Positions 3,151 through 22,038 of a stretch of DNA of 23,344 nt are shown one piece after another. Location of the stretch: NCBI GenBank assembly GCA_048940645.1, contig JBHLOI010000053.1, positions 1-23,344 on the forward strand. The letters are read 5' to 3'. The position numbers and the translations under genes were made by a program. The stretch's first letter is position 1. Each line of letters opens with the position of its first letter. The DNA comes from Promethearchaeota archaeon (GTDB taxonomy: Archaea; Asgardarchaeota; Lokiarchaeia; Sigyniarchaeales; SOKP01). The notes under the pieces are model-generated. The model made no database searches. It was not told where the DNA came from and worked only from the letters and a program-made list of their open reading frames with translations.

Positions 3151-5400
3151 TTGAAACATTTAAAAAGAATTTTTTTACTTAATTTATTTCTATTGGTATT
3201 TATATTAGGGTATTTCTCCCAAATTAACTACTCGAAAGCTCAAGTTGAGGGAGTTTCTTTAACTTTTCCTGCTAATTTCAAAATGGAAGAATTTACTGAA
3301 AATTTTGATAAATTAGAAAATATAACTTCAATTGAAGTTCCTCTGCCCTCCAGCTCTTGGAACGTAACAAATTTACAGTTAAATTTTTCAAATATTAAAC
3401 TACAACGCGAAGTAAAACCAATTGAGGATCAGCATCATGGAGATTATGGAAATATTTATTATACGAATCCTTCCTGGAGAACTCATGGACTTGGAGCTCA
3501 AATAAATATAACCGAAACCACTAGAGTATTTGGTGCATATATTTATGGTTATAAAAGTCCTGAAACAACCGAAGTTATTCAAGTTCAAATACGCGGATAT
3601 AATGAAGCAGAAAACAAACCGAATGATACAATATATGCTTTTACTAACATCAATGTTTCTTTAATTCCAGGCTGGTATTTACAAATTTTTAATTCTTCAG
3701 TAAAACTACCAAAAGGTAATTATTATTTAGTTTTATTTGGTATTGTATCTGGCAGCACTGATTATTATTGGGCTTATAATGAAGACGATCCGACAAATCC
3801 GAACCTTTATTCATCAAAATATACAAGTAATTGGAATACTGGAGTTCAAAATGCTCCTTATCTATATAAGTTGATTCAAAAAATAAATAAAAGTTATAAT
3901 CCAGAAGAAATTAATATGAGTGCCGAAATTAACGGTGGATCCTATGACATTTTAAATTCAACAAGCCCTTTTTCTGGAATTCTATCAATTAATGGATTAA
4001 ATTGGAACCTAAATCATACTAATTTACTCATTCCTATAAAAAATGATTTAGATATTGAATTAAATTTTACTCTTGACTATAATATTGAGCTTAAAAATTA
4101 TCTCCCTTCGAATGCTTCAGTTGTAATTGAAGCAGAAAAGGATAACATCTGGACTTTAAATCCAAAAATTACTAAATATTTCTGGAATTATTCTATAAAA
4201 TTTTATTATCCTTCTAATTGGAATAATTTAATGGTTTTTAGAAATGGAGTAAATATTTCCTCTTTAGTTTATATTGACCCATTTGAAAAATCACTTCTTA
4301 TAACAAATAACGCTATAATTAATGGAGCAGAATGGAATATTACAGCTACTTCTCCATTATTTAATTTTGGTTTAGATATACGTCTTTATGAATATACACC
4401 TGGTCAGGAATTAAGATTTTTAATAGATGAACCGGCAACATCAGGTATTTATACCCTAATTATATATGATCCAGTTCATTTACCAATTAACGATGCTCAA
4501 CAAACTATATCATTACCAGCAGAAACAAATCTATTTTCCTACACGTTCGACACACACCCACTTGAAGGAGAATATCTCGCATATGTTTATTTTTTCGATG
4601 GAATAAATGCGGGTGTAGAAACTGCTACATTTGTTATGACTGTTCCTTTTACAATTGATCCCTTAACCCTATTTCTTATTATTTTAGCCTCAGTAATCGG
4701 TATATCAGTAACCCTCTCTATGGTAGTAGTTGCTAAAAGGCATAAAAGGAAAATTGATGCTTATAAAGAAGAAGTATTCAATAAATGCATGGATATTCTA
4801 AATCTAAACTACATTATGGTTTCTGAGAAAAAATCTTCATTAAATGTGTATGAACAAGTATTTACTAAACAGAAACTTGATCCCACGCTAATTTCTGGAT
4901 TTTTATCAGCTATTCATTCCTTCGGAATTGAATTAACGAATACTGATGAGAAAACGCAAACAATCAAGCTGGAATATAAAAATTCAAAAGTTTTAATGTC
5001 AGAATTTAAAGATTTTAGAATAGTTATAATTATGAATGAATTACCCTCCCAAAAATTCTTCGATTCAATAAGTAATTTAGCTTTTGATATAGAACTTCAT
5101 TATAGTAGTTATCTTGAAAATTTTAAAGGAAACCTAGACCCCTTTAAAGGAATTGAAAATCTGCTTAAAAAGCATTTAAGCATCTCATTTTTATATCCAT
5201 TAAAAATAGTTAAAACTGGAAAAACTAAAGTATCTCAAACGGAAAAAATAATCATTGGGCAAGCATTAGAATCAATGAAAAGAAATAAGCAAAAATATTT
5301 CTATATAACAAATATTATGGAAGTAAAAACATGTGATTCCAAGGATATCGAAGCGATATTTAGTTTAATTGATAAGAATATCTTTCAACCAGTTATATAA
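3151..5400 (+). CDS. P1: type I membrane protein with signal peptide, beta ectodomain, TM helix, cytoplasmic longin-like domain and winged-helix-like tail (subfamily A)
   Basis: TTG start. Signal peptide ends SKA|Q. Many N-x-S/T sequons. TM LTLFLIILASVIGISVTLSMVVVA is followed by KRHKRK. Contains LDPTLISGFLSAIHSFGIE. Colinear with three paralogs in the window. Confidence 0.85.
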   Translation: MKHLKRIFLLNLFLLVFILGYFSQINYSKAQVEGVSLTFPANFKMEEFTENFDKLENITSIEVPLPSSSWNVTNLQLNFSNIKLQREVKPIEDQHHGDYGNIYYTNPSWRTHGLGAQINITETTRVFGAYIYGYKSPETTEVIQVQIRGYNEAENKPNDTIYAFTNINVSLIPGWYLQIFNSSVKLPKGNYYLVLFGIVSGSTDYYWAYNEDDPTNPNLYSSKYTSNWNTGVQNAPYLYKLIQKINKSYNPEEINMSAEINGGSYDILNSTSPFSGILSINGLNWNLNHTNLLIPIKNDLDIELNFTLDYNIELKNYLPSNASVVIEAEKDNIWTLNPKITKYFWNYSIKFYYPSNWNNLMVFRNGVNISSLVYIDPFEKSLLITNNAIINGAEWNITATSPLFNFGLDIRLYEYTPGQELRFLIDEPATSGIYTLIIYDPVHLPINDAQQTISLPAETNLFSYTFDTHPLEGEYLAYVYFFDGINAGVETATFVMTVPFTIDPLTLFLIILASVIGISVTLSMVVVAKRHKRKIDAYKEEVFNKCMDILNLNYIMVSEKKSSLNVYEQVFTKQKLDPTLISGFLSAIHSFGIELTNTDEKTQTIKLEYKNSKVLMSEFKDFRIVIIMNELPSQKFFDSISNLAFDIELHYSSYLENFKGNLDPFKGIENLLKKHLSISFLYPLKIVKTGKTKVSQTEKIIIGQALESMKRNKQKYFYITNIMEVKTCDSKDIEAIFSLIDKNIFQPVI

Positions 5401-5411
5401 ATAATTTATCT

Positions 5412-7691
5412 TCAAAAGCTATTATTTTGATCCTTATTGGGTTGAAATATTCCTTTCTTCATTAGACTAAGAATTGTTTCATAATCTTTTGGACCACATA
5501 CATTCTCTGGAAGAAGATAAACTGCGTAAAAATATTTAAAATTATTTTCTTTCATAAATGTTGATGCTTTCTCCACCATTTCTTTTTCATCTTGAGTGAG
5601 TTTTATATTTTTAGAAATTGAAAGCTTTAAAGGATAACGTATAGATACATTTAAATCGCTGTCAATTAGCTTCTGGATATTAAGAAATGGTTTTTGGTTT
5701 CCCTCGAATTTATCAATAAGTTTTCCATAATATTTATAGATATGATAAGCTAAAGATTCAATAGCATAAAGAAAATTCTTAGAAGGATTACTCTTCATAA
5801 TAACAATCAACCTTAAATTAATAAATTCAGTCATTATGATGAAAGAATTTTTATAATCCACTTTAACAATCCTGGAGTCTTTAGCACCATCTATTACCTC
5901 AACTCCAAAATTATGGATAGCTTGAAGGAATCCCGAAATTAAAGTAGGATCTAATTCTTTTTCTTCAAAAGATTTAGCAAATAAATCAATTCCAGTTTTG
6001 ACATCTAAAACTATCACGTATTTTAAATTTAATATGTCATTACATTGCTCTAATATTTGCTTTAATTTATTTCTGCGATTAGATTGAACTTTTCTTAATG
6101 TGATATAGCTAAACCCTGCAATAACGCCACCAATGATTATAATCAGACCAACAATCAAATATAAAGAAAAGTCTTCCCCAGATGGTGGAATATTAAGAGA
6201 TATAGTAAAAACTTGAGATTGAACTCCAGCGTCTGTTTTATTATTCCAATAAATGTAGGCAATATAATTTCCCTCAATAGAATTTGATGGAATAGTATAG
6301 GAGAATGTATTTTCTTGGGATGGTATTTCTTTTGTCACTTGATATTCTTCTAAATCGAGTGGATCAACAAGTAAAAATGTGTAATTGCCAGCTAGAGGTG
6401 AAGTAATAGAAAAACTTAATTTTTGTCCAGTAAGATAGTCAGTTTTCGGTGCGTAAATATTAAATTCTATATTGGGAGAATTTGCTAGAATCTCCCAAAA
6501 AGCATCATTTTCAATGAAATTATTTGGAATTATTATAGAATAATTTATAGGATCTATAGTAACATTTGGAGAAATGTCAATCCCATTTTTCAAAACCTTT
6601 AGATTAGTCCAACTTTTTGGATGAATAAATTTTACTCTATGGTAATCTGAAACTTTTGTAATTTCTGGATTTATATTCCATTGATTTGAATTGTTAAGTT
6701 CAACATTTACTGAGCCAACAGCCTTAAAATAGTTATAAATATTAAGAGTATAAAGTAAATTGAATTTCAATTGTTCAGTTTTATTATTTTTAACCCTAAT
6801 TTTAACAGTTTTATTATTAGGATGATAGCTGATATTATTTTTTTTCAGATAACCTTTTCCTTGAAGATTTCTATTTAACACTTTAAATGATTCTCCATTA
6901 ATTAGTGCACTCATATTAATGTCTTCTGGAAAAATAGTTTGATTAATCTTTTGATTTAATTTTACTAAGAAAGGAGTTTTTGGGGAATCTAATATCCAAC
7001 TACTTCCATCATAATATGAAGTATTTAAGCTAGGATATTGAGGATTTACATCATTATAATACCAATAATAGTCTGAATTATCAGATGGTAAAAACTCTGT
7101 TCCATTAAGCACTAAATAATAATTTCCTGGTATAAGATATAAAGGATTTTGAAAGTGTTGATTATACCAACCTAAAGTAGTGGATAGATTTAGAATTGTG
7201 TAAGCATTAATAATTTGATTAGGTATATTACCTATTGCATCGTATCCATTAATTTGTATATATAAAGGGCTAACCGGGTTATAATTCTCAACATTACCAT
7301 AAATTTGAACTCCATAAAGAATAATAGGATCTAAAATCTTCAACTGAATGCCAAAGGCTTGAATAGATTTACTTTTATCCATCAATCTTCTTTGGCCTAT
7401 ATCGTTATCTTCAATAATTTTAGTTTCATTCCCAAAGGCTATATTAGTAAAATTTAATTCAATATCTTCGATATACCAAGATGAATTAGGCAAATCAAAA
7501 TCAATTGAACTTGCGTTCTCAGAATAGCCTTCTGAAATTGAGGATTCTAACATTTCAAAATTAAGAGATATAGACCTACTCTCGTGATTATTATTTAATG
7601 CGAAACCATCTTTAATACTAAAAATAAATATAAATAAGGCTATTATGGCTAAAGTAAGAATAACTTTTTTTAAAAATTTCTCAGACTTCAT
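5412..7691 (-). CDS. P2: paralog of P1 with the same architecture (subfamily B)
   Basis: The likely start is the ATG at 7691 (MKSEKFLKK plus hydrophobic h-region, DGFA|L) rather than the TTG at 7727. TM LYLIVGLIIIIGGVIAGFSYITL. Contains LDPTLISGFLQAIHNFGVE. Converges on P1 with an 11-nt gap. Confidence 0.85.
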   Translation of the reverse strand: MKSEKFLKKVILTLAIIALFIFIFSIKDGFALNNNHESRSISLNFEMLESSISEGYSENASSIDFDLPNSSWYIEDIELNFTNIAFGNETKIIEDNDIGQRRLMDKSKSIQAFGIQLKILDPIILYGVQIYGNVENYNPVSPLYIQINGYDAIGNIPNQIINAYTILNLSTTLGWYNQHFQNPLYLIPGNYYLVLNGTEFLPSDNSDYYWYYNDVNPQYPSLNTSYYDGSSWILDSPKTPFLVKLNQKINQTIFPEDINMSALINGESFKVLNRNLQGKGYLKKNNISYHPNNKTVKIRVKNNKTEQLKFNLLYTLNIYNYFKAVGSVNVELNNSNQWNINPEITKVSDYHRVKFIHPKSWTNLKVLKNGIDISPNVTIDPINYSIIIPNNFIENDAFWEILANSPNIEFNIYAPKTDYLTGQKLSFSITSPLAGNYTFLLVDPLDLEEYQVTKEIPSQENTFSYTIPSNSIEGNYIAYIYWNNKTDAGVQSQVFTISLNIPPSGEDFSLYLIVGLIIIIGGVIAGFSYITLRKVQSNRRNKLKQILEQCNDILNLKYVIVLDVKTGIDLFAKSFEEKELDPTLISGFLQAIHNFGVEVIDGAKDSRIVKVDYKNSFIIMTEFINLRLIVIMKSNPSKNFLYAIESLAYHIYKYYGKLIDKFEGNQKPFLNIQKLIDSDLNVSIRYPLKLSISKNIKLTQDEKEMVEKASTFMKENNFKYFYAVYLLPENVCGPKDYETILSLMKKGIFQPNKDQNNSF

Positions 7692-7748
7692 GCTGAATTT
7701 TTTGGTATCTGAGTTTAATTGATACAATTTTAGTTAAAAAAATTTTGG

Positions 7749-7757
7749 TTTATATAA
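7749..7757. promoter_or_regulatory. candidate TATA box in the divergent P2/sulfatase intergenic region
   Basis: TTTATATAA reads TTATATAAA on the minus strand. The AT-rich background lowers specificity. Confidence 0.3.
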
Positions 7758-7842
7758 TTATGTATATAATACCAATTGAAAGCATCCTAAATTTTATTTT
7801 CTACTCTAAATTCTCTTGAATTAATTTTAAATTTTTCTTAAA

Positions 7843-9384
7843 TTGTTTCATATGAGTGCCTCTAAGGAAAAAATGAATGTCCTTTTCATTATTACCGATG
7901 CGCAACGCGCTGATCATTTGGGTTGTGCTGGGAATCCCATAGTAAAAACACCGAATCTTGACAGGCTCGTAAAAACAGGGGTTAGATTCTCACAATTCTT
8001 CTGTACAAATCCAATATGCATGCCAAACCGAGCTACGTTAGCAACAGGTTTATATCCTAATGTTCATGGGGTTAGAAGCAATGGTATAAACCTACGTCAA
8101 GATATTCCAACAATATTTCAAACATTAAGGAAAAGAGGATGGTATACTGCAGCTATTGGTAAAATACACCATCAATATTGGCTAGGACCATTCCGACATA
8201 AGACTAGATCTGCGGAAAGTTTAACTGATTGGGCTATAGCAAAAGATAAAACTTATCCCGTCAGAGATAATTTCCCTCTTCCCTACTATGGATATAATGA
8301 AGTAGAATTAATTTCTGGGAATGGTACAGTATGTTCAGGACATTATCTTCAGTGGTTAGAAGAAAAATCACCAAAACATGCAAATGCTATGAAAAAAAGG
8401 GTTCAAAATTATGATAATCTTTTTAATCTTTTTTGTGATGAGATTCCTGAAGATCTATATAATACTACCTATGTGAAAGAACGTACTATTACATTTTTAG
8501 AGAGACATGCAAATGGAGATTATGGAAATATGCCCTTCTATTTACATTGCTCCTTTCCAGATCCACATTATCCATTGTATCCACCCAAGCGTTATCAAGA
8601 TATGTATAATCCTAAGGATATTGAACTTCCTCCAAGTTTTAATGACATTAAAAATTTATACAGCCATAAATTCTTGGCATATCATTTAAAGAATCCACCT
8701 TTTAAAAAAGCATTCTTACGTGAATCTACGGAAGAAGAAATACGAAAAATTACCACATTAACATATGCAGCCATATCGTACGTAGATTATAGTATAGGTC
8801 AAATTATTGCTGCCTTAGAGAAATTAGGTTATTCTGATAATACGATTATTGTATTCATGAGCGATCATGGAGATTTAATGGGTGATCATGGATTACTATT
8901 CAAAGGCCCTTGCCCATATAATGGTGTTTTACAACTTCCATTAATATGGAAAGTACCAGGATTAACAAAATCAGCCATTTCTAATTCTTTAGTGAGCTCA
9001 ATTGACTATCCTAAAACGATTCTAAACCTATTGCACATTACCGAAAGACACCAACCCCCAGATATGCAGGGTTTTGATATTACTCCTATTTTAACAAATC
9101 CCAACGAAAAAGTAAGAGATTGTATTTTTATCGAAAATGATGAGGAAGTTGGTCCACTTCAAGCAAGGTTAAGGCATCTAATTACTGAAAATTTTAAATT
9201 GACGATCTATGAAGGTATGAATGATTATGGGGACATATATGATCGAAAAAGTGATCCTTATGAACTAAAAAATCTATGGGAGAATCGGGATTTCAGGGGA
9301 GAAAGATTTAAATTAGTAAATAGATTGTTGCAGGAAAATTTAAAAGCTCAAACTAAATATCCAAAAAGAATAGCAGGAACATAA
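7843..9384 (+). CDS. formylglycine-dependent (Cys-type) sulfatase-like hydrolase, cytoplasmic
   Basis: NVLFIITDAQR, TPNLD, CMPNRATLATG (CxPxR), GKIH, DPH, SDHG, DPYELKNL. No signal peptide. The true start may be the ATG at 7852 or 7873. Confidence 0.93.
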   Translation: MFHMSASKEKMNVLFIITDAQRADHLGCAGNPIVKTPNLDRLVKTGVRFSQFFCTNPICMPNRATLATGLYPNVHGVRSNGINLRQDIPTIFQTLRKRGWYTAAIGKIHHQYWLGPFRHKTRSAESLTDWAIAKDKTYPVRDNFPLPYYGYNEVELISGNGTVCSGHYLQWLEEKSPKHANAMKKRVQNYDNLFNLFCDEIPEDLYNTTYVKERTITFLERHANGDYGNMPFYLHCSFPDPHYPLYPPKRYQDMYNPKDIELPPSFNDIKNLYSHKFLAYHLKNPPFKKAFLRESTEEEIRKITTLTYAAISYVDYSIGQIIAALEKLGYSDNTIIVFMSDHGDLMGDHGLLFKGPCPYNGVLQLPLIWKVPGLTKSAISNSLVSSIDYPKTILNLLHITERHQPPDMQGFDITPILTNPNEKVRDCIFIENDEEVGPLQARLRHLITENFKLTIYEGMNDYGDIYDRKSDPYELKNLWENRDFRGERFKLVNRLLQENLKAQTKYPKRIAGT

Positions 9385-9411
9385 AAATAAGAAATTTTAT
9401 TTATTAAATTT

Positions 9412-9630
9412 TTATAAGTAAGTGCCGATTAAAATCAAAACACCAGAAATTGTAAAAATTAATGGACATAGTTTAAACACAATAAACTTTACTCGAGTAC
9501 CAGTAAACAAAGAAAGGATAGCTAAGCAAAAAAGCATAATAGAACTAATTAAATTGACATATGCTAAAGCGTAAGCTTCTCCTAGAATTGAAATTATTAA
9601 TACGAGAGCGATAAATTTTCTATTTTCCAT
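9412..9630 (-). CDS. small membrane protein (about 3 TM, 72 aa)
   Basis: ATG-started ORF that fills the gap between two + strand genes and is almost entirely hydrophobic segments. Confidence 0.6.
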   Translation of the reverse strand: MENRKFIALVLIISILGEAYALAYVNLISSIMLFCLAILSLFTGTRVKFIVFKLCPLIFTISGVLILIGTYL

Positions 9631-9672
9631 CTAAAAAGAAGATCACTTGAAAGAAGATTTATATTTCAGAAA

Positions 9673-10611
9673 ATGGATAAATTAACAATGAATTTAGAAG
9701 TATATGAAATTCTTATTTTAATAACTATCGGCGCTCTGGTAGGTATTGGTATGAGCTTTATGGGTCAAACAGGGCAAGGACTTGTTATGCCTATAATTCT
9801 CATGTTAACTGGAGATCCATTTTTAGCGATTTCTGTAAACTTATTAAATGATTTAATAGCTGCAGTAGCAGTAAGCATAGGATATATTAGAAAAGGAGAG
9901 TACAAACTTCAGGCTAACACCTTAATAGTAATCATACTAGCACTTATTTTTACATGTATAGGAGTTTATATTTTAATGGTAACTCCATTACAAAGTATAT
10001 ATGGATGGTTTATCCCTGCATTTATAATCTGCTTAGGTTTAGTTTTCATTAAAAGTGGATACGCATCTACAGAGCGATTAAAAACCATCCTTCGAAACAT
10101 TTATAATCGATTTCTTAGGGGTAAAGATAAAGAAACAAATCTGATTGATATAGATCGAAAGAATAATGATGAAGAGATTGCAAAAAATAATGAAATACAA
10201 GAAGTTATTCCTTATGGCTCAAAATTATTTTACATAATTGCTGTTGTTTTTGGCTTTTTCTTAGGTATCAATTCTGGAATGTTTGGCGCTAATTCAGGAA
10301 TGATTATAGTTTTAGCACTTATAATCCTTTATGGATACCCAATTAAAAAAAGCATTGGAACAGCCCTCATATTAAGTATTATTATTAGTATACTAACTTT
10401 AACATTATATCAGGTTTTTGGTACTTTAATAAAAGGGACTAATTACTTCAATCTAGAAATAACGGTTTTCCTAGCAAGTGGTTCAGTTATTACTGGATTT
10501 TTAACTTCAACATATATTCAGCGTTTATCTGCAAAAACAATGGGAAGAGCAATGGGAATTGTAATGGTTATTTTAGGGTTAACTGCTTTAATTTTTTATT
10601 TTATCACTTAA
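9673..10611 (+). CDS. TauE/SafE (TSUP) sulfite/organosulfur transporter family
   Basis: Two internal repeats with Gly-rich motifs (GALVGIGMSFMGQTGQGLVMP; GINSGMFGANSGMIIV), KKSIGTAL, about 8 TM, with a charged central loop. Confidence 0.85.
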   Translation: MDKLTMNLEVYEILILITIGALVGIGMSFMGQTGQGLVMPIILMLTGDPFLAISVNLLNDLIAAVAVSIGYIRKGEYKLQANTLIVIILALIFTCIGVYILMVTPLQSIYGWFIPAFIICLGLVFIKSGYASTERLKTILRNIYNRFLRGKDKETNLIDIDRKNNDEEIAKNNEIQEVIPYGSKLFYIIAVVFGFFLGINSGMFGANSGMIIVLALIILYGYPIKKSIGTALILSIIISILTLTLYQVFGTLIKGTNYFNLEITVFLASGSVITGFLTSTYIQRLSAKTMGRAMGIVMVILGLTALIFYFIT

Positions 10612-10702
10612 TTTAACATTTTTAATACTCTTACACTTTTTTATAATTTTATATACAGGATTAAACAATATATGACTATTTAAAATTTAAAGTTGGATAA
10701 AT

Positions 10703-12028
10703 ATGAACGAAATGAAAAAAGAATCAAAAGCTATAGTATTTGTAATTCTTTTAGCAGCATTTATTGCTTGGATGCATGATGGGTATTCTCTAGTTTTAAT
10801 AAGTTTGCTTGCTAGCGATCTAAAAGCATATTTTGGAGTAGGAGATGCTTCAATAGGATTAATTATATCTCTACAATTTGTATTTACAGTGCCGGGTGCA
10901 ATTCTTTTTGGAGAAATAGGTGATCGTTTTGGTAGAAAAAAGGCCTTAATTGTATCAATTGCGTGGGATGCTATATTTTCTTCATTAACAGCCTTAGTTC
11001 CACCAGATGGATTCATACTTTTTGCTGTATTAAGAATGATCTCTGGTTTAGGTGTTAGTTGGGGTATTTCTTTCTCTCTTATTTCTGAATACTTTTCGTC
11101 CAAAAGAAGAGGAGCTGCTGGTGGATTAGTCCATGCAACATTTGTAATTGGATATATTTCAGCAATTCTTGTTACTTTAGTCATCGGTCCTTTTGGATGG
11201 CAATGGTGTTTTCTTACCGCATTATATCCCCTTCCTTTCTTGGTTCTCTTTTGGTTTGCTTTACCTGAATCAGCAGTTTGGTCTGAATATGATAAAGTAA
11301 TGAAAGAGAGAAAAATTAAACAAAAAATTAGAGTGAAAGAAATTTTTGGTTCAAAATGGATTAAATTAACCATTCTGCTTATAATTCTCTTTTGGTTTGC
11401 TGAGACAGCTTATCACTCATTAGTAGATTTAGCACCAATATTTTTTGAATACCTTTTCCATACTATAGGTAATCCGAGTTATGTGGGTTCAGCAAGACTC
11501 TATATGTTAATTCTAATGGTAATTGCTGCATTTGGTCTGTTCTTCTTCGGATTTTTAAGTGATTATATTGGAAGGAAAAAAGCTTTTCTTATTGATAATA
11601 TAATTGGGATTTTTGGTGGCGTGCTATTTGCTATATTCACTCTTCTGATTTTCAATGATACATTAATATTGACCTCGGCCGTTTTTATAACACTTGGATT
11701 TGGCTTGCATGGAATCTTTGGTGTATGGTCTTCTGAATTATATGATACCGAAGTCAGAGCTTCAGCAAATTCAATAATATTTTCTATAGCACGCGGAGCT
11801 GGTTTCGGAGGATTTCTCGTAGGACTCATTTCCGAGACATTGAATCCATTTAGAGCGGACCCTTTTGCTAGTACGGCTACTTCATTTGTTTCTCTTCAGG
11901 CGCTAGGTACTGGAATGTTACTTAGTTTAATTGCATTTATTGGGGTTTTTATTGTATTGCAATTTGTACCTGAACCAAAAGATAAAACCATAACTGCTCT
12001 AAGTAAGGCTGATATACTTAAACCTTAA
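10703..12028 (+). CDS. MFS transporter (about 12 TM)
   Basis: Motif A GEIGDRFGRKK and its repeat GFLSDYIGRKK, LRMISGLG, SEYFSSKRRG, LPES, SELYDTEVRAS. Confidence 0.93.
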   Translation: MNEMKKESKAIVFVILLAAFIAWMHDGYSLVLISLLASDLKAYFGVGDASIGLIISLQFVFTVPGAILFGEIGDRFGRKKALIVSIAWDAIFSSLTALVPPDGFILFAVLRMISGLGVSWGISFSLISEYFSSKRRGAAGGLVHATFVIGYISAILVTLVIGPFGWQWCFLTALYPLPFLVLFWFALPESAVWSEYDKVMKERKIKQKIRVKEIFGSKWIKLTILLIILFWFAETAYHSLVDLAPIFFEYLFHTIGNPSYVGSARLYMLILMVIAAFGLFFFGFLSDYIGRKKAFLIDNIIGIFGGVLFAIFTLLIFNDTLILTSAVFITLGFGLHGIFGVWSSELYDTEVRASANSIIFSIARGAGFGGFLVGLISETLNPFRADPFASTATSFVSLQALGTGMLLSLIAFIGVFIVLQFVPEPKDKTITALSKADILKP

Positions 12029-12049
12029 ATTTTTTTCTTCTTTTTTTTT
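12029..12049 (+). terminator. oligo-T terminator after the MFS gene
   Basis: attttttcttcttttttttt lies immediately after the TAA. Confidence 0.5.
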
Positions 12050-12090
12050 AAAAAAATTTTTGAATAAGTGCGTATGTTTATATAATATAA

Positions 12091-12109
12091 GACAAAAACT
12101 TTTTTATAA
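12091..12109 (+). promoter_or_regulatory. candidate BRE-TATA upstream of P3
   Basis: Purine-rich gacaaaaa followed by TTTTATAA about 40 nt upstream of the start. A second TTTATATA is at 12077-12084. Confidence 0.3.
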
Positions 12110-12144
12110 TAAGAAGACGATTAAATTATCAAATAATATATAAG

Positions 12145-14406
12145 TTGAATATGGGTCAAGGTTTGCGAAAAAAGGGAATATTAATTATCTCTCTATTAAT
12201 TTCAGTATTATTTTTCAGTTTAATTTATCAGAGTAGATTTATAAAGGCTCAGGGGAATGGCTTATCATTGGATATTCCAAATAAATTCGAATTAAATGAA
12301 TATTCTAACATAAATGGTTCAAACTATATAGGGAGTGTTGTTAATATAAGTTTACCATCTACTGAATGGAATATCACTAAAATTGAATTAGATTTTACAA
12401 ACCTTACATTTGATAGAGAAACCCTTGTAATAGAAGACCAACCGATTGCATATGATATGGTATTTTACCAAAATTCTGTTTTCAATAATTTTGGTTTAGC
12501 AACCCAAATAAAATTAGATCATTCCGAAACTATTTATGGAGTATTTATTTATGGTAATAAATCTCTAGGTACTACTCAAGATATTCAGGTACAGATTCAA
12601 GGATTTAATGAACTAAATAACACTCCAAATGGAACAATCTTTGCGACAACAACAATTAATATTTCCTCGCAAGTTGGATGGTATTTTCAAAATTTTTCAT
12701 TACCCGTTGATTTACCAAAAGGTAATTATTTTTTAATCTTAAATGGAACTAATCTTAATGTTAACGGTCAATATTATAATTGGTATTACAATCCAGCCCC
12801 AAGTGATCCATCATTATATTCCTCATTCGCATATGATACCATTTGGAGTGATGGAGTAGATAATACAACCTTTTTATATAAACTGATACGTGAAAGTAGA
12901 GCTCCTCTTTTTCCAGAAAGTATCAATATGTCTGTAAATATAAATAATCAATATTGTAAAGTATTAAATGGTGTAAGTGAAGGTTCTGGAGTTTTAAATC
13001 AAACTTTTCAAAATTTTTTTCCTAACGATAATTCTCTTTATATGCCGATTTATAATAATGCTTCAAAAACATTGGTCTTTAATGTTTCCTATAGCCTAAA
13101 TCTTGAGAAAATTTTGAATACCCAATGTATAGCCAGCATAGAAGAATCTAAAAGTATTCAATGGATTCTCTCTCCGAACTTTAATCGCCAAACATTTAAT
13201 TATTCAGTTAAATTTGGCTTTCCAAAGAGTTGGAGTAATATTAGTGTTTTTCTAGACGAACAAAATCTAACTACAAACGTAATAATAGACTATGGAGGTA
13301 GATTTATTTTTATTCCAAATAATACAATTACTCAAGATTCAGGATGGGAAATACGAGCTAACTCTCCTAATATCTTATTTAATTTATATGCACCAAAAAC
13401 AGAATTTAATTTAGGTCAGGAATTACGTTTTTCCTTGCAAAGCCCAATTACTGGTAATTATACATTTATTTTAATGGATCCTGCTGACACTGAGGAGACT
13501 AGAATTAAAAAGATCATTCCAATTGATAATAATATATTTTCCTATGAACTCCCATTAACTTCTCCTGATGGAAAATATATAGCATATGTATTTTGGAATA
13601 ATGCAACTGATGCTGGCGCTCAATCACAAGAGTTTCTAATTTCTATTCCAAATTCAAGTCAACCTCTAGATTTATCATTGCTAATAACGATTATTATAAT
13701 CTCAGTAATTGTTGCTGGTTCTGGTATTTCAATTTATGTTGGAGTGAAACGTATTGTGAAAAAACGCAGGTATGACATGGAGAGGCTTCTTAATAAATGC
13801 ATTGATATTTTAAACTTAAATTACTTAATTGTTACTGACAATAAATCCGGGTTAGATGTATTTACTGAGTCTTATGGAGATAAAAAATTAGATTCTACCT
13901 TAATATCTGGGTTTTTACAAGCAGTGCGAGAGTTTGGTACGCATGTCGCTGATAAAGATACTAGAATAGTTAAGCTAGATTATAAGGACACTATTATCTT
14001 AATGAAAGAATTTGTTAATATCAGATTAATTTTAAATATGAAAGACACCCCCTCAGAAGACTTTATTTATTCAGTCGAATCATTAGCTTACGAGATTTAC
14101 AAAAAATATGGAGATCAGATTGAAAATTTTAGAGGAGGCATTAAACAGTTCAGTGGTATAAAAGAATTAATCGAAAAACATTTAAATGTATCGTTTCTAT
14201 TGCCTTTCAAGGTTGTTGAAAATCCTAATATTAAATTAACTCCCTCAGAAAAAGCAATGGTAAATAAAGCCATACGATTTGTAAAAGAACATAAATTTGA
14301 TTACTTTTATTCATTATATTTATTACCTGCAAATGAATGTACACCTAAGGACGCTGAAACAATATTAAATTTAATAGCAAAAGGAATTTTCAAACCGATT
14401 AAATAA
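12145..14406 (+). CDS. P3: paralog of P1 with the same architecture (subfamily B)
   Basis: Signal peptide ends IKA|Q (the start may be the ATG at 12151). TM LLITIIIISVIVAGSGISIYVGV is followed by KRIVKKRR. Contains LDSTLISGFLQAVREFGTH. Confidence 0.85.
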   Translation: MNMGQGLRKKGILIISLLISVLFFSLIYQSRFIKAQGNGLSLDIPNKFELNEYSNINGSNYIGSVVNISLPSTEWNITKIELDFTNLTFDRETLVIEDQPIAYDMVFYQNSVFNNFGLATQIKLDHSETIYGVFIYGNKSLGTTQDIQVQIQGFNELNNTPNGTIFATTTINISSQVGWYFQNFSLPVDLPKGNYFLILNGTNLNVNGQYYNWYYNPAPSDPSLYSSFAYDTIWSDGVDNTTFLYKLIRESRAPLFPESINMSVNINNQYCKVLNGVSEGSGVLNQTFQNFFPNDNSLYMPIYNNASKTLVFNVSYSLNLEKILNTQCIASIEESKSIQWILSPNFNRQTFNYSVKFGFPKSWSNISVFLDEQNLTTNVIIDYGGRFIFIPNNTITQDSGWEIRANSPNILFNLYAPKTEFNLGQELRFSLQSPITGNYTFILMDPADTEETRIKKIIPIDNNIFSYELPLTSPDGKYIAYVFWNNATDAGAQSQEFLISIPNSSQPLDLSLLITIIIISVIVAGSGISIYVGVKRIVKKRRYDMERLLNKCIDILNLNYLIVTDNKSGLDVFTESYGDKKLDSTLISGFLQAVREFGTHVADKDTRIVKLDYKDTIILMKEFVNIRLILNMKDTPSEDFIYSVESLAYEIYKKYGDQIENFRGGIKQFSGIKELIEKHLNVSFLLPFKVVENPNIKLTPSEKAMVNKAIRFVKEHKFDYFYSLYLLPANECTPKDAETILNLIAKGIFKPIK

Positions 14407-14449
14407 AAATTAAAAAGAAATAAACCTAATTTTTTTGTTAAAATCGGCT

Positions 14450-15733
14450 CTATTTCTTTAATTCTTTAATTTGATCTCTTATTTGGTACCTTGCGTTATC
14501 AATGATATTTGCAGCGATAAATGAGGATTCTTCCTTTACTTTTTGTTTTAATATTATATATTTTAAATCTAAGGCTTCTGAAAGAGTTTCTTTGCGATCT
14601 TTTTCAGCCCCTTTTAACACTATATCGAGTATATGTAGTGCTAACTGTGATTTACCTTCGTTAAACAAGTCTTTGGCATGATTTAAATAAGTACTTTCAT
14701 CACTAAGCTTTAAAAGTTCTTTTGCAATATCTTCTGATTTTGAAGGAAATAAATCTGTAGGATTACCCGTATTATACCAACCATGGTAAAGTCTGTAGGA
14801 AGCATGAATTGCAAACCGATAGCATCCATACATGGGTCTTAAAATAGGGTGGTTTTTGAATTTATCTGGAAAAATTTCCATCATTTCATGATAAATTTGT
14901 TCAAACCATTTGCCTTCGTTTAATCGCTTTACAACCTCATCATGGACAAAATGCATTGCCTCAGCTGTAATTGATAAAGCATCCCTGATTTTTGCTTCCC
15001 CCTTTATTAGCTGTCCATGACCCGGGACAAGATATTTAGCATCCTTTTCCATCATTTTCTCCATAGCTATAGCCCAATCCTTTGGATATCTTTGGACTTT
15101 ATATGGATTTCCTACGTTTGGAAATGAAGACACCATTAGATCGCCTGAACATATAACCTCTTTGTCAGGCACCCATAACCAAATAGAATCATCAGTTTCA
15201 CCTTTATCATGATATACTTCAAAATTAACGCTTCCTAATTCAAAGAAGTATTTGGCATCATTTCCTTTGAGAATTATATTTGGGTCAAGAGTTTCAAGAG
15301 CGGAGACTAAAACCTTTTGTCCCTTACCTCCAACAGACGCAAATTGCATTTTATTAATCCAATCATGATATTTACCTAACATCCTGTATTTTTCAAACCT
15401 TTTAATACAATTTTCATGGGCAATTACTTGAGGCATATTCCAGCCTTTCTCCTTTACCTCATTAATGAAAGGTTGAAATGCAAAGGCATGATCAAAATGA
15501 CCATGAGAATAAAGAAAAAATTTTACTGGTTTATCTGTTTTATTTCTTACTTCTCCGAATGTTTTTAATCCATACTGTTTTATTGGTAAATCGAATATCA
15601 CCAAACCATCATTAGTTTCAAATACACAAGTATTTCCCATGCCTGCTACAAAAAGACAGGAACCATCTGCAAATGTAGATGAACCAAACCATCCAAACCA
15701 ATCGCTCATTCCATTAGTTGTTTTTCGCACCAT
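14450..15733 (-). CDS. metallo-beta-lactamase-fold alkyl/aryl sulfatase (SdsA/BDS1-like), apparently lacking the C-terminal SCP2 domain
   Basis: YSHGHFDHAF (HxHxDH), GETDD, SGD, FPNVGNP, PGHG, and the dimerisation-domain motif YHGWYNTGNPTDLFP. Confidence 0.88.
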   Translation of the reverse strand: MVRKTTNGMSDWFGWFGSSTFADGSCLFVAGMGNTCVFETNDGLVIFDLPIKQYGLKTFGEVRNKTDKPVKFFLYSHGHFDHAFAFQPFINEVKEKGWNMPQVIAHENCIKRFEKYRMLGKYHDWINKMQFASVGGKGQKVLVSALETLDPNIILKGNDAKYFFELGSVNFEVYHDKGETDDSIWLWVPDKEVICSGDLMVSSFPNVGNPYKVQRYPKDWAIAMEKMMEKDAKYLVPGHGQLIKGEAKIRDALSITAEAMHFVHDEVVKRLNEGKWFEQIYHEMMEIFPDKFKNHPILRPMYGCYRFAIHASYRLYHGWYNTGNPTDLFPSKSEDIAKELLKLSDESTYLNHAKDLFNEGKSQLALHILDIVLKGAEKDRKETLSEALDLKYIILKQKVKEESSFIAANIIDNARYQIRDQIKELKK

Positions 15734-15853
15734 AGTTATTTCTCATTTTTTACTAGTTCTTGAATAATTATATCTTTACAATTAAATTATAAAAAGATTA
15801 TAACTGAATTTCTAACTATATTACCTTTTGAACTTTCAAAAATTATGCATAGC

Positions 15854-16897
15854 TTACAGGATCAAAGAAAGACCAATAAAAATTGACAAAAAGAATAACA
15901 GAAATGCTATAGAGCTAACCGCTCCATGCCAGGAAAACTTCCTTGATTTAAGAATCTTTTGTCCTAATCCTGAGAAATAACTCAGCATCAGAAGTACTAT
16001 TGAGAGAAGAGAAATTATTCCATGGACGGAATAAAAAATCCTACTTACAAATACATATACTTGATTTAGCCATGATATAAAAGTTATAGTCGTTAAAAGA
16101 ACACAAAAAATCGATGTATATAAATGAAATTTCCTAGAAACGAATTTTGGCAATCTTCTAAACACTTTACCGTAGCGACTGAACTTTATCCCTGAGATCA
16201 TGGATAACCCATATAACAGGAAAGAAATTGAAAATAAAAGCGCATGATTGCTATAATCCACAGCAATAGAGAGTAAACCCTCGTCACTATAACCCATACT
16301 CGCGTAAGTTCCCTTATAATCAAAATTAACAAATTCTATATGATCAACCCACCGAACCCATTTATATCCAAAATGATAGGGTGCAACAACTCTTAAAGGA
16401 TATCCTTGAGTAAGTGGTAGCGTTTCTCCATTCATTTCATAAGCAAGCAGAATATCATAATTAATTATCTGGTTAATTGTAAGGGAAGAAGAAAACCCAT
16501 CAACTGCATAAAATACAACCTCTATAGCATCTAAGGTTGGTTGTACCAAATTTAATAAACTTTTTACAGGTACTCCTTTCCATAAAGCTGTCCCAGAGGC
16601 TCCTGCTACGCATTGTATGGTAGCGATCAATTCAATACTTGATAATGAAGTAAAATTTTCATAGGAAAATGTAAGAGGATTTGAAACATTCCCATCTATT
16701 TCAAGTGTCCAAGTTGATATATTAATGTCTGGAAGAGGTTTGCTATAAAAAACAAAAAATTCATCATTAGGGGTAATCTGATATTTTTTTACTTCATGTA
16801 CTCCTAATATTATAAGAGGAGTTGATATAACTCCAACTAATATGATAAAGAATAAATAAGATATAATAATCGAAAAAACTTTGGAATCTTTTCTCAT
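15854..16897 (-). CDS. sulfite-oxidase-family molybdopterin domain (MsrP/YuiH-like) fused to a 4-TM cytochrome b561-like domain
   Basis: ITPNDEFF, WTLEIDGNV, IQCV (Mo-ligating Cys), WKGVP, LAYEMNGETLP, GYPLRVVAP, GYKWVRW. Four TM helices follow, each led by a His (NHA, RKFH, SVHG, WHG). The start is the ATG at 16897 or the TTG at 16909. Confidence 0.85.
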   Translation of the reverse strand: MRKDSKVFSIIISYLFFIILVGVISTPLIILGVHEVKKYQITPNDEFFVFYSKPLPDINISTWTLEIDGNVSNPLTFSYENFTSLSSIELIATIQCVAGASGTALWKGVPVKSLLNLVQPTLDAIEVVFYAVDGFSSSLTINQIINYDILLAYEMNGETLPLTQGYPLRVVAPYHFGYKWVRWVDHIEFVNFDYKGTYASMGYSDEGLLSIAVDYSNHALLFSISFLLYGLSMISGIKFSRYGKVFRRLPKFVSRKFHLYTSIFCVLLTTITFISWLNQVYVFVSRIFYSVHGIISLLSIVLLMLSYFSGLGQKILKSRKFSWHGAVSSIAFLLFFLSIFIGLSLIL

Positions 16898-17113
16898 AGT
16901 CAGCTGCAAAATTGAAAGTATTAACAGTTATTAAAATCTACTCCTAATTTTCTATAATCTACTAGTTTATAATCTTTTAGCGTCATATTCTTATGTTTCA
17001 ATTCAATTTCAATTTGATAGAATTTATTGAAATTTAAATCAAAATTTAAATATTTAAATGAAGATTACAAATTCGAATGAATTAATTTAAAATCATAGAT
17101 TTTTAGGGATATT

Positions 17114-19390
17114 ATGTTAAAAATAAAAAAATATAGATTTCTTTTCGTTTGTGGATTTATTTCTGTTTTATTCTTAAGTTTTATAATCAATTTACAATCT
17201 TCTTTTGCTCAGAGTAATGATCTTATTTTAAATAAATCGACAAATCTGGATATGATCGAATTTGCAGATAATATTAACACAAAAGAAAGTAATAGTTCAA
17301 TTACTATCCCTATAGCTTCATCCACTTGGAATATTACTCAAGTTAATTTCAATTTTAGTGATATTAGGCTTGAACGTGAAATAAATGCTATTGAAGACAA
17401 TACTACTCTACTAAAAGCACATTCTCTTGGAAAAGATGTACGTGGGTTAGGTGTTCAGATAAACATAACTGAGCCTACTAAAATCTTTGGTGTATATATT
17501 TATGGAGCTGCCACATCTAGATCAATTGTGGATGTTACTAAGTTTCAAATTACCGGATATCGATCGGGAGGACTTACTCCCGATTCCCCAAATAGCACAA
17601 TATATGGATCAACCGATTTAAATATGAATAATACATTAGGTTGGCATCTTCAAATGTTTTCTTCTCCAGTAAATCTTTCAATAGGGCAATATTATTTAAT
17701 TCTTAATCTTACAGAAGTTATGGCCATTGAGGGTCAAACTATTTATTGGTTTTATAACGATGAAAGTCCTATACATCCAGAACTTCATATTTCATTTTAT
17801 GTGAGGGATCTTCTAATTTGGCATTGGACTAGAGGAAAACAAGGGTCTCCTTTCCTTCATAAAATAATCCAAAGAACTAATAGGTTATATTATCCCAAAA
17901 GTATTAATATGACAGCTGAATTAGATGGTCAAATTTACAATGTTACAGATGGATTGGTAATTGGAGCAGGTAATCTAACTATAAAAAATTTAAATTATAA
18001 TCCTAATGACAATGATCTAAATATTCAAATAAATAATAATAACTCAGTACAGTTGTTTTTTAATCTGAGTTATAAACTTAAGCTTAAAAATTTATTAATT
18101 TCTAATGGATATGTGCTTATCCAAGAAAACCATGATAATAATTGGACTATGACTCCTGAGATATCCCGATTTTATATGAATCATTCATTAAAGTTTGATT
18201 ACCCTAAGAATTGGATCAATCCAAAAGTTTTTAGAAATGGAATAGATATATCTTCTCAAGTTCAAATAAATATTACTGAAAAGTTCATACTTATTCCAAA
18301 TAATACCATTATTGAGGGAGCTACTTGGAAAATAACTGCTAATTCTCCAAATTTAGATTTAACATTAAATACTCCAAAAACGTCTTTTGAACAGTCGCAA
18401 GAATTAAAATATTCTGCACTTGCTCCTCTATTAGATGGGAATTTTACCTTTATTTTACATGATGCTTTGGGATATCCAGAAGATAATATAACGCTCCCTG
18501 TTACTTCACTTGAAATTATTTATAGTTATAACTTGTCTTCTAACCCAAATGAAGGAACATGGGTGGGACATGCATTTTGGTATAATTTAACTGCTGCTGG
18601 TGTTAAATCCGTAAGTTTTGAGGTGAATATTGATAGATTACCACTAATTATCCTTATAACTGTTATAATTGGTTCTGTAAGTGTAACAAGTATTTTTACA
18701 ACATATAAAGTAGTTAAGAAAATAAAAAGAGAACGCGAAACATATCGACAAAGCATATATAACAAATACATGGACATTCTTAATCTGGATTATTTAATAG
18801 TGATTGACAAAAATTCTGGAATAAACATTTTTGATAAAGTTTTAGCAACTAAAAATATGGATGCTTCTTTAATTTCTGGATTTTTAGAAGCAATTAGAAG
18901 TTTTGGGATTGATCTAACTGGTTCGGATCAAAAATCTCAAGCCATTAAGCTCGAATATCAGGATTCCAAAATATTAATGTCTGAGTTTAAGAATTTCAGA
19001 ATGACCCTTATTATGAAAGATAATCCCTCTGAGGATTTCCTTGATTCAATAAAACAGTTATCTTACGATATTGAAGAAAAATATGGAAAAGAATTGGAAC
19101 ATTTTGATGGTGAGGTAGGAAAATTTGTGGGAATAAAAGACTTAATTGAACATCATTTACCAGTCAGTTTAATTTATCCACTTAAAATTAATGAATCTAT
19201 TGATGTTAAACTTAATTCAGGTGAAAAAGACCTAATTGATTCAGCAAAATCCATTATGAAACAAAAAGGAGTAAGCTACTTCTTTGTATCCAATTTAATT
19301 TCTCAAAAAGGTGGATTTCAAGCAAAAGAAGCGGAACTTATTCTAAATCTTATTGAGAAGAATGTATTCGAAACTTCAATTAACTTATAA
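17114..19390 (+). CDS. P4: paralog of P1 with the same architecture (subfamily A)
   Basis: Signal peptide ends SFA|Q. TM LPLIILITVIIGSVSVTSIFTTY is followed by KVVKKIKR. Contains MDASLISGFLEAIRSFGID. Confidence 0.85.
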   Translation: MLKIKKYRFLFVCGFISVLFLSFIINLQSSFAQSNDLILNKSTNLDMIEFADNINTKESNSSITIPIASSTWNITQVNFNFSDIRLEREINAIEDNTTLLKAHSLGKDVRGLGVQINITEPTKIFGVYIYGAATSRSIVDVTKFQITGYRSGGLTPDSPNSTIYGSTDLNMNNTLGWHLQMFSSPVNLSIGQYYLILNLTEVMAIEGQTIYWFYNDESPIHPELHISFYVRDLLIWHWTRGKQGSPFLHKIIQRTNRLYYPKSINMTAELDGQIYNVTDGLVIGAGNLTIKNLNYNPNDNDLNIQINNNNSVQLFFNLSYKLKLKNLLISNGYVLIQENHDNNWTMTPEISRFYMNHSLKFDYPKNWINPKVFRNGIDISSQVQINITEKFILIPNNTIIEGATWKITANSPNLDLTLNTPKTSFEQSQELKYSALAPLLDGNFTFILHDALGYPEDNITLPVTSLEIIYSYNLSSNPNEGTWVGHAFWYNLTAAGVKSVSFEVNIDRLPLIILITVIIGSVSVTSIFTTYKVVKKIKRERETYRQSIYNKYMDILNLDYLIVIDKNSGINIFDKVLATKNMDASLISGFLEAIRSFGIDLTGSDQKSQAIKLEYQDSKILMSEFKNFRMTLIMKDNPSEDFLDSIKQLSYDIEEKYGKELEHFDGEVGKFVGIKDLIEHHLPVSLIYPLKINESIDVKLNSGEKDLIDSAKSIMKQKGVSYFFVSNLISQKGGFQAKEAELILNLIEKNVFETSINL

Positions 19391-21316: not shown

Positions 21317-21367
21317 GCCAAATAATAATTTTTTAAATTTATTTAAAATTATGATTAAGATAAATAA

Positions 21368-22021: not shown

Positions 22022-22038
22022 TCTTTACTTTAATCTCT

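Follow-up and report, generated by a model that had tools for sequence, protein, structure and literature searches.

The DNA analysed here is a contig of 23,344 nucleotides (JBHLOI010000053.1; C105 in our numbering), referred to throughout as the window, from the metagenome-assembled genome of a Loki-type Asgard archaeon of the Promethearchaeota (3.83 Mb, 89.6% complete, about 30% GC); the sequencing runs listed as containing this DNA are DNA runs of sediment metagenomes, with no RNA run among them. It encodes four paralogous proteins in which an apparently extracellular part is joined by one transmembrane helix to a tail with a predicted longin fold and a winged-helix-like domain behind it. 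We regard it as an evenly balanced proposition that these four paralogs, ancient members of a family of type I surface proteins found throughout the Asgard archaea, serve in binding or sensing, with a longin platform held at the inner face of the membrane. The architecture of the proteins, their predicted folds, their distribution and two conserved gene contexts are described below; from these we infer a receptor function with its ligand and partner, as well as GTPase binding, signalling and an activity as guanine-nucleotide exchange factor (GEF) or GTPase-activating protein (GAP).

Architecture and predicted structure of the four paralogs

The four open reading frames are found exactly where a preliminary description of this DNA had placed them, at positions 3151-5400 (+ strand; P0001, 749 amino acids [aa]), 5412-7727 (- strand; P0002, 771 aa from a TTG start), 12145-14406 (+ strand; P0003, 753 aa, the copy used for the structure models) and 17114-19390 (+ strand; P0004, 758 aa). 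They align end to end with pairwise identities of 36-45%. For P0002, initiation at Met13 is more likely than at the TTG codon and would give a protein of about 759 aa. The four copies had been called colinear; this applies to the order of their domains but not to gene orientation, since the second gene lies on the minus strand and converges with the first.

In each of the proteins, the N-terminus is formed by a hydrophobic segment with a small-x-Ala site at its end, which is consistent with the cleavable signal peptide proposed earlier. In all four copies, hydropathy analysis reveals a single strong transmembrane segment (about residues 509-542) with a stretch rich in K and R behind it, as expected for one helix with a basic stop-transfer sequence. 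The ectodomains carry 16-23 N-x-S/T sequons each and the tails 0-2, corresponding to 3.2-4.5 sequons per 100 aa outside versus 0-0.9 inside. The ectodomain sequons exceed those of composition-matched shuffles by a factor of 2-2.7 (P <= 0.002 for each protein), and the tails show no enrichment. Because the basic residues behind the transmembrane segment (positive-inside rule) and the asymmetry of the sequons both place the tail inside the cell, these sequence features support the view that the four paralogs are N-glycosylated type I surface proteins with an N-out/C-in topology.

In P0001, the signal sequence is followed by an ectodomain (about aa 31-505), the transmembrane helix (about aa 509-527) and the tail comprising the longin and winged-helix-like domains (aa 532-749). 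The corresponding parts of P0003, all encoded on the plus strand, are the ectodomain (aa 36-510; positions 12250-13674), the transmembrane helix (aa 512-530; 13678-13734), behind which the basic stretch KRIVKKRR is located, the cytoplasmic longin domain (aa 557-686; 13813-14202) and the C-terminal winged-helix-like domain (aa 687-753; 14203-14403). The cytoplasmic part had been described as strongly conserved. Its longin domain is indeed the best conserved region among the four paralogs (mean identity 46%), but the description overstates the difference from the domains of the ectodomain (37-39%).

Modelling of P0003 residues 540-753 with AlphaFold2 (AF2) from a 56-sequence alignment yielded a tail structure with a mean pLDDT of 85.4 and a pTM of 0.78. 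Its elements are arranged in the order helix, two strands, helix, three strands, long helix and further helix, and a small C-terminal unit follows; DSSP assigns them to E19-26, E32-37, H45-59, E69-74, E77-84, E87-93, H99-121 and H133-146 of the model. This is the beta-beta-alpha-beta-beta-beta-alpha-alpha topology of longin domains, with the two C-terminal helices on one face. In the exhaustive structural comparison with VIA, the best match of the tail was Sec22b (Z 11.6, root-mean-square deviation [rmsd] 2.9 A over 118 residues), followed by the longin domain of a Lokiarchaeal Roadblock-Longin protein (8yqg; Z 11.1) and by VAMP7 (Z 11.0), the mu and sigma subunits of adaptor protein (AP) complexes, sedlin, synbindin, SRX, Lst4 and Mon1-Ccz1 (Z 9.7-11). 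All of these longin matches span model residues 18-147 or thereabouts. Roadblock proteins (MglB, LAMTOR and Asgard roadblocks) reached Z 8-9.6 in matches that end near residue 120 and leave 122-147 uncovered, and Foldseek recovered AP sigma, LAMTOR and Sec22b. Since longins top the exhaustive comparison, above the roadblocks, the longin assignment anticipated for the cytoplasmic part holds at the level of the predicted fold (pLDDT 85 for the longin domain; Z 10-11.6 for the top matches).

At the level of primary structure, the four full-length proteins belong to no Pfam family and gave merely sub-threshold noise (Phage_blade, Sigma_reg_N, LapA_dom, DUF4082). A profile of the tail had no match at E <= 10 among PDB sequences. 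The only Pfam hints among the 56 tails were Sybindin in one of them (E 9e-4) and MAPKK1_Int in two. The beta1-beta2 loop of the tail has the consensus K-x-S-G followed by L/I/V; its Gly is found in 52 of the 56 sequences and does not as a rule precede a Pro. A single Arg residue is strongly conserved in the module (49 of 56 tails); it corresponds to R627 of P0003 (positions 14023-14025) and is located in strand beta5.

The last 67 residues of the P0003 tail are folded into strand-helix-strand-helix-helix-strand according to DSSP, at pLDDT values of 82-96 (E148-151, H161-177, a strand at 182-183, H184-187, H195-206 and E210-212 in model numbering). This order fits the winged-helix scheme of three helices and a beta-hairpin wing (alpha1-beta1-alpha2-alpha3-beta2-beta3). 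In the ESM Atlas, tail model residues 18-200 align (TM 0.60) with an Asgard cluster, half of whose members carry the winged helix-turn-helix (wHTH) family HTH_47. The PDB structural matches listed for the tail are occupied by longins, with no direct winged-helix match among them, and a feature search of the ESM Atlas with the 67-aa segment gave no usable match. Of the domain order longin-winged helix given in the preliminary description, the first part is thus modelled confidently, and the second, which fits by its order of elements and by one HTH_47 match, is likely to be a winged helix as judged from the model. With a mean net charge of -0.5, the third helix of this domain is on the acidic side; at three of its positions acidic residues predominate, and a set of diverse tails revealed no conserved basic or polar contact residues in it. 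Sequence-specific DNA binding by the tail is therefore unlikely.

The ectodomain of about 475 aa, described beforehand as beta-rich and rich in sequons, was modelled for P0003 as an all-beta structure with a pLDDT of 90.3 and consists of three parts. The outermost (about aa 90-252) is a jelly roll, whose best match is the lectin-like domain of the surface-layer-associated protein Cwp84 (Z 14.1, rmsd 2.9 A over 148 residues); VIA also matched it to PHR domains, to carbohydrate-binding modules (CBMs) and to phage proteins of the tail tip and of capsid decoration. A middle beta-sandwich connects it to a membrane-proximal domain (about aa 408-505) of the immunoglobulin (Ig)/FN3/macroglobulin-like kind that resembles the macroglobulin domains of alpha-2-macroglobulin and C3 (Z 11-12). 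In the VIA comparison, the ectodomain resembles surface-layer-associated and phage receptor-binding proteins. By its resemblance to lectin and CBM folds, the modelled ectodomain may bind glycans. Foldseek matches of the entire ectodomain to Eph ectodomains, complement C3 and galactose oxidase were not taken as homology (TM about 0.16), as they reflect generic strings of beta-domains.

Distribution and gene neighbourhoods of the family

Searches with a profile of the tail detected the module in 191 of 201 Asgard genomes of the phylum, including all 85 high-quality ones. Many copies are present in each, with up to 15 or more scored matches per genome and at least 15 in the genome studied here. 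A phmmer search of 1.8 billion representatives returned 562 clusters at E <= 1e-3 and 98 at E <= 1e-30, in which the host proteins of the module range from about 110 to 1887 aa; the frames found in genome searches are 460-2257 aa long. In our genome, the same tail also ends two other surface proteins with signal peptide and transmembrane segment, of 1578 and 1184 aa. A pattern scan of 185,579 species genomes yielded 79 loci, all with Asgard labels (Loki/Promethearchaeota, Hod-, Hermod-, Thor-, Odin- and Sigynarchaeota) except for a family fragment on a 5-kb contig binned into a Phycisphaerae genome (L084; JAUVYZ010000166.1). Since every other locus is from Asgard archaea, this occurrence probably reflects a binning error rather than a transfer.

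Named homologs are without exception hypothetical proteins, and the three nearest Atlas clusters consist of unnamed Promethearchaeota proteins of 734-764 aa. In agreement with the earlier statement that no characterised protein with this type I topology was known to its author, no receptor with this transmembrane-longin architecture was found in Pfam, among PDB sequences or in the incompletely covered literature. A soluble protein of 459 aa from this genome (L002:2632-4011, - strand; G000:C48) contains the same longin and winged-helix-like module, preceded by a Cys-rich N-terminus (C-x7-C-x7-C-x2-C) and followed by a long coiled coil that forms the C-terminus. It has 460-aa orthologs in genomes of the same genus and is a candidate for a cytoplasmic partner of the receptor tails.

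When 101 tails were placed in a tree, each of the four window paralogs grouped in a well-supported subclade of its own, and every one of these subclades contains orthologs from other genomes that are likewise found in a sulfatase context. The P0001 orthologs are an example, and the tail of this protein has a counterpart with 91% identity in another genome (L056). The array of four paralogs and the company of genes in which it is found are therefore old.

The first of the two conserved gene contexts is that of the window itself. Next to P0002 and divergent from it, a Cys-type (formylglycine) sulfatase with a CMPNR motif and without a signal sequence is encoded (7843-9384, + strand; Pfam Sulfatase, 2.8e-45). 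Its gene belongs to a co-directional run that continues with a TauE/SafE sulfite or organosulfonate exporter-type membrane protein (9673-10611, + strand; Pfam TauE, 1.8e-26; present in 12 family loci) and an MFS transporter (10703-12028, + strand; Pfam MFS_1, 8.5e-34; present in 5 family loci) and ends with P0003. The gene for an alkylsulfatase-like metallo-beta-lactamase (14450-15733, - strand; Pfam Lactamase_B and Alkyl_sulf_dimr) converges with P0003 across a gap of 43 bp. Together with the gene for a molybdopterin oxidoreductase of the sulfite-oxidase type with a C-terminal membrane domain (15854-16909, - strand; Pfam Oxidored_molyb, 1e-37), it forms a pair from which P0004 diverges; the linkage of the oxidoreductase is not conserved and was seen in one family locus only.

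To compare gene densities, we used the 79 loci (1.08 Mb) around family genes and took the genome of the window as background. Per 100 kb, sulfatase genes numbered 1.95 near family genes versus 0.08 in the genome, TauE genes 1.11 versus 0.03, and alkylsulfatase-like metallo-beta-lactamase genes 1.39 versus 0.03; these three are thus enriched 25- to 46-fold (25-fold for the sulfatase). All 21 sulfatase matches in these loci are located within 5 kb of a family gene. In the 15 loci with an alkylsulfatase-like gene, it is always found on the opposite strand, convergent with the family gene and 17-520 bp from its 3' end. Transporters and enzymes for one substrate class are hence co-located with the family, as they are with the binding proteins of utilisation loci. 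Judged by this sulfate-ester cluster and by the fold predicted for the ectodomain, sulfated compounds are the likeliest class of ligand for the window copies.

The second context was found in sister clades, where genes for a receptor, a Rag/Arf-like GTPase and a small longin-like protein follow one another in this order in at least four species-level genomes. In L048, L055, L063 and L072 (and in the close relatives L049 and L050), a GTPase of 180-187 aa is encoded on the same strand downstream of the receptor, at a distance of 73-141 bp; in L063, 33 bp separate the receptor stop from the GTPase start. L055 and L072 have the left flank of the window in common (U32 peptidase, flavin mononucleotide [FMN] reductase, receptor) and are therefore positional relatives of the window array. 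Since the GTPases of these operons are 47-58% identical to each other across genomes versus about 30% to other GTPases, we assign them to one orthologous group. They possess the motifs GLDNSGKT, WDFGGQ and HKYD and match Arf, Gtr1_RagA and SRPRB in Pfam (SRPRB at 1.4e-15). Their nearest solved relatives are Lokiarchaeal Rag-like GTPases (8yl2, E 2e-32; 8zla/9m28), whose C-terminal roadblock domain they lack, followed by Arl3, Arl2 and Arf.

The third gene encodes about 130-150 aa and either follows the GTPase gene or directly follows or adjoins the receptor gene in 12 loci. It overlaps the GTPase stop by 8 nt in L063, is located directly behind the receptor in L052, L053, L054, L058, L064 and L067, and stands beside a family gene in L075; beyond these loci, such a neighbourhood recurs at G019:C126, G030:C133 and G159:C172. 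Its product has a sub-threshold Sybindin match, and its alignment with the receptor longin is in register over the beta-beta-alpha-beta-beta-beta core (hhalign E 2.7e-4, probability 42%, 82 columns); it is probably a small longin. A profile of this protein gave noise-level rows only among PDB sequences, including BET5 at E 0.5. Prediction of a complex of the L063 trio (tail, small longin-like protein and GTPase) gave no verdict (score 0.00 in a run without controls), and we count this result neither way.

Across all loci, the distances of GTPase genes to family genes are bimodal, with 10 of 29 GTPase genes located within 300 bp. Co-location by chance fits the bulk statistics given below and was rejected solely for the orthologous GTPase whose gene directly adjoins that of the receptor in sister clades. 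Given these operons, Rag/Arf-like GTPases are the likeliest partner class of the receptor tail, as judged from gene order and predicted fold.

Two further loci deserve description in this connection. In L005, a CheB-type methylesterase and a gelsolin-domain protein (7659-9568, + strand) are encoded directly upstream of the family member P0044, and a 309-aa Arf/RagA-like GTPase (13016-13945) is encoded downstream of it in convergent orientation. In the genome of the window, a GTPase gene at C63:2708-3250 is flanked by genes for an ArsR-like wHTH protein (111 aa) and for an 882-aa multi-pass membrane protein (G000:C63:1-3615, - strand); this may be another pairing of a membrane protein with a GTPase.

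The remaining part of the window contains several genes outside of these contexts. An open reading frame of 194 aa (19449-20033, - strand) matches no Pfam family and converges with P0004; since a 197-aa frame is found at the same position behind the last receptor gene of the related contig L004 (6486-7079), it is probably a real, conserved gene. A run of three genes on the minus strand (20213-23004), whose order is kept in L004, encodes a 367-aa protein with a C-terminal 2x[4Fe-4S] domain, an S-adenosylmethionine (SAM) methyltransferase (21368-22021) and an N6/N4 DNA methylase (22039-23004); a restriction enzyme partner was not seen within the window. A few genes past the stretch that is syntenic with the right end of the window, L004 encodes a 218-aa member of the GPP34/GOLPH3 family (11950-12606, - strand; PF05719), the family of a eukaryotic Golgi phosphoprotein, next to a PEMT-family methyltransferase. 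A frame of 228 aa (10687-11373, - strand) that runs antisense in the MFS transporter gene and has no family match most likely arose by chance in AT-rich sequence.

Proposed function and competing explanations

Asgard archaea are the closest prokaryotic relatives of eukaryotes, and the longin domain is the fold by which eukaryotes dock small GTPases. Asgard genomes contain dozens of genes for longins, roadblocks and small GTPases. In the explanation that we propose, a lectin/CBM-like jelly roll would be exposed outside the cell atop two beta-sandwich (Ig/macroglobulin-like) domains, and the transmembrane helix would join it to the longin and winged-helix-like domains in the cytoplasm. The ectodomain would bind an extracellular ligand, at the window locus probably a sulfated glycan or another sulfate ester. 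Held at the membrane, the longin tail would provide a docking platform on the inner face for a Rag/Arf-like small GTPase or its regulators, either on its own, with a second tail or with a soluble longin partner. The presence or capture of a substrate would thereby be coupled to the work of the transporters and cytoplasmic sulfatases encoded nearby, which would take it up and break it down.

A number of observations weigh against this explanation. No GTPase gene is present within the window, and the density of GTPase genes near family genes is only 1.4 times the background (2.69 versus 1.90 per 100 kb). The GTPase coupling suggested in the preliminary description has genomic support from the conserved operon in at least four genomes of relatives and not from the window, where the neighbours are genes of sulfate-ester catabolism. 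Among the roughly 70 GTPases of this genome, the one most similar to the operon GTPase (44-47% identity) is encoded at C63:2708-3250 and does not stand beside a family gene. Searches of this genome yielded no small longin partner, and the only match in five genomes of the same genus (three of them about 100% complete) was a weak one inside a 305-aa frame. The tail has no above-threshold match to any Pfam longin or roadblock family. Likewise, the 56 tails have no conserved Arg in the beta1-beta2 loop and lack the GP motif that marks the GAP longins FLCN, NPRL2 and SMCR8 in this region (PMC12290439); a GAP-type longin of this kind was rejected because of the absence of the motif. All structural results rest on predicted models. 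Gene linkage is in part inherited synteny among related genomes, so that the loci are not independent observations, and the sulfatases are cytoplasmic enzymes for which a surface lectin is not obviously needed.

A more far-reaching version, which we put forward tentatively and judge unlikely when taken as a whole, is a kinase-free outside-in pathway for sulfated organic matter. In it, the binding of a ligand to a type I receptor with a lectin tip would rearrange the longin tail in the cytoplasm, whose counterpart would be either a second tail or a small soluble longin, and a Rag/Arf-like GTPase would thereby be switched or recruited. Such a system would be a membrane-anchored forerunner of Ragulator/GATOR-Rag, which senses nutrients, or of SRX-SR-beta.

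It is possible, if on the improbable side, that the proteins capture substrates or act as adhesins and do not signal at all. They would then be archaeal counterparts of the glycan-binding proteins of bacterial utilisation loci or general envelope glycoproteins, with a tail that only anchors, sorts or localises them, e.g., to protrusions, the cytoskeleton or vesicle-forming machinery. This would agree well with an ectodomain that is lectin/CBM-like, Ig-like and enriched in sequons and that matches surface-layer-associated and phage receptor-binding proteins, and with genes embedded, in the manner of a utilisation locus, among transporter and catabolic genes. One tail that is found on very different ectodomains (frames of 460-2257 aa) also fits a shared sorting or anchoring domain, and the longins of eukaryotic SNAREs and coat adaptors have a role in sorting and are not GTPase switches (PMC10933270). 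However, a folded, conserved tail of 215 aa far exceeds the needs of a membrane anchor, and the operon with a specific Rag/Arf-like GTPase and a small longin-like protein argues, at least in the sister clades, for a GTPase-coupled function.

Two other explanations concern the nature of the tail. A membrane-tethered transcription regulator of the ToxR/CadC type, which upon ligand binding outside the cell would control the sulfatase and transporter genes next to it through contacts of its winged helix with DNA, made either directly or once proteolysis has released the domain, would account for the element order of the C-terminal domain, for the interleaving of the family genes with catabolic genes, from which they diverge in two cases, and for the positive net charge of three of the four tails (+5, +2, +4 and 0). 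We nevertheless consider it very improbable: the would-be recognition helix has the acidic character described above and lacks conserved contact residues, and the module, with its many copies per genome, has widely differing surroundings, GTPase operons among them. Moreover, the winged helices found beside longins in known eukaryotic complexes bind protein. Improbable, too, though not quite to the same degree, is the assignment of the tail as a roadblock/LC7 domain of the MglB/LAMTOR type, in which case it would form a dimer with a GAP-type or scaffold role, as MglB does in bacteria. The matches to LAMTOR and MglB are clear (Foldseek E about 1e-4, in addition to the VIA scores given above), MAPKK1_Int is hinted at in two of the 56 members, and a helix (model residues 2-17) precedes the first strand as in roadblocks, whose alpha-beta-beta-alpha-beta-beta-beta order starts with a helix that takes the place of longin alpha3. 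That helix, however, is the juxtamembrane continuation of the transmembrane segment, and longins score higher and align through the two C-terminal helices to about residue 147, which roadblocks lack. Since the two folds are related, the choice between them is largely one of labelling and not of mechanism.

If the proposed docking of GTPases by the longin platform is correct, signalling from a membrane receptor to a GTPase, which is characteristic of how eukaryotic cells are organised, would be older than the eukaryotes themselves. Otherwise, the family would still be a major unannotated class of Asgard surface glycoproteins. In either case, it ties a large group of Asgard longin domains physically to the cell surface, and in the sister clades its genes are linked to those of a particular Rag/Arf-like GTPase and of a small longin-like protein. 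This provides a concrete set of three proteins for the study of binding, GEF/GAP activity and ligand response, to which the window adds sulfate esters as a candidate ligand class.

Relation to known longin platforms and utilisation loci

Longins, roadblocks, GTPase-longin fusions, longin/two-component fusions and families with an NPRL2-like longin plus a small C-terminal domain have been described in Asgard archaea, as have adaptin-Vps28-longin multidomain proteins and FLCN/SMCR8-type GAP longins (PMC12290439) in the literature at large. With the longin domains of Sec22b, VAMP7, the AP sigma/mu N-termini, sedlin/TRAPPC2 and 8yqg, the tail has the predicted fold and topology in common over about 120-133 residues (Z 10.5-11.6), and like eukaryotic and Asgard longins it would be membrane-associated on the cytoplasmic face. 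It differs from them in lacking longin family membership at the sequence level and in its position C-terminal to a signal sequence, a glycosylated ectodomain of 475 aa and a transmembrane segment, whereas longin SNAREs are tail-anchored without an ectodomain and other longins are soluble.

In the signal recognition particle (SRP) receptor, the SRX longin of SR-alpha is combined with the membrane-anchored, Arf-like SR-beta (5ck3, 1nrj), so that a longin and an Arf-family GTPase meet at a membrane, as they may do in the family. SRX matches the family tail with Z 9.2-10.3, and the operon GTPase of the relatives has the SRPRB match noted above. The anchoring is reversed in the family, where the longin is membrane-anchored and the GTPase soluble, and there is no SRP-related gene context. 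Ragulator(LAMTOR)-Rag and the NPRL2/NPRL3 part of GATOR1 would resemble the family as membrane-held longin/roadblock platforms beside Rag-like GTPases. LAMTOR subunits are among the Foldseek matches, Lokiarchaeal Rag-like proteins are the nearest solved relatives of the operon GTPase, and the Asgard families with an NPRL2-like longin (bioRxiv 10.1101/2020.10.19.343400) have the same sequence of a longin and a small C-terminal domain. Yet the family is anchored by a type I transmembrane protein with an ectodomain and not by lipidated LAMTOR1, its operon GTPase is without the C-terminal roadblock domain of the Rags, and it lacks the GP motif of GAP longins (PMC12290439), with NPRL2 not being among the structural matches listed.

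Bacterial polysaccharide-utilisation loci likewise encode lectin/CBM-like surface proteins together with transporters and with enzymes for the catabolism of a single class of substrate. They belong to another domain of life, and the Asgard family differs from them in having a transmembrane anchor instead of a lipoprotein, a folded longin tail and cytoplasmic enzymes. In comparison with these systems, we class the family as a new architectural version of longin-domain platform proteins, with a putative function in binding or sensing at the cell surface.

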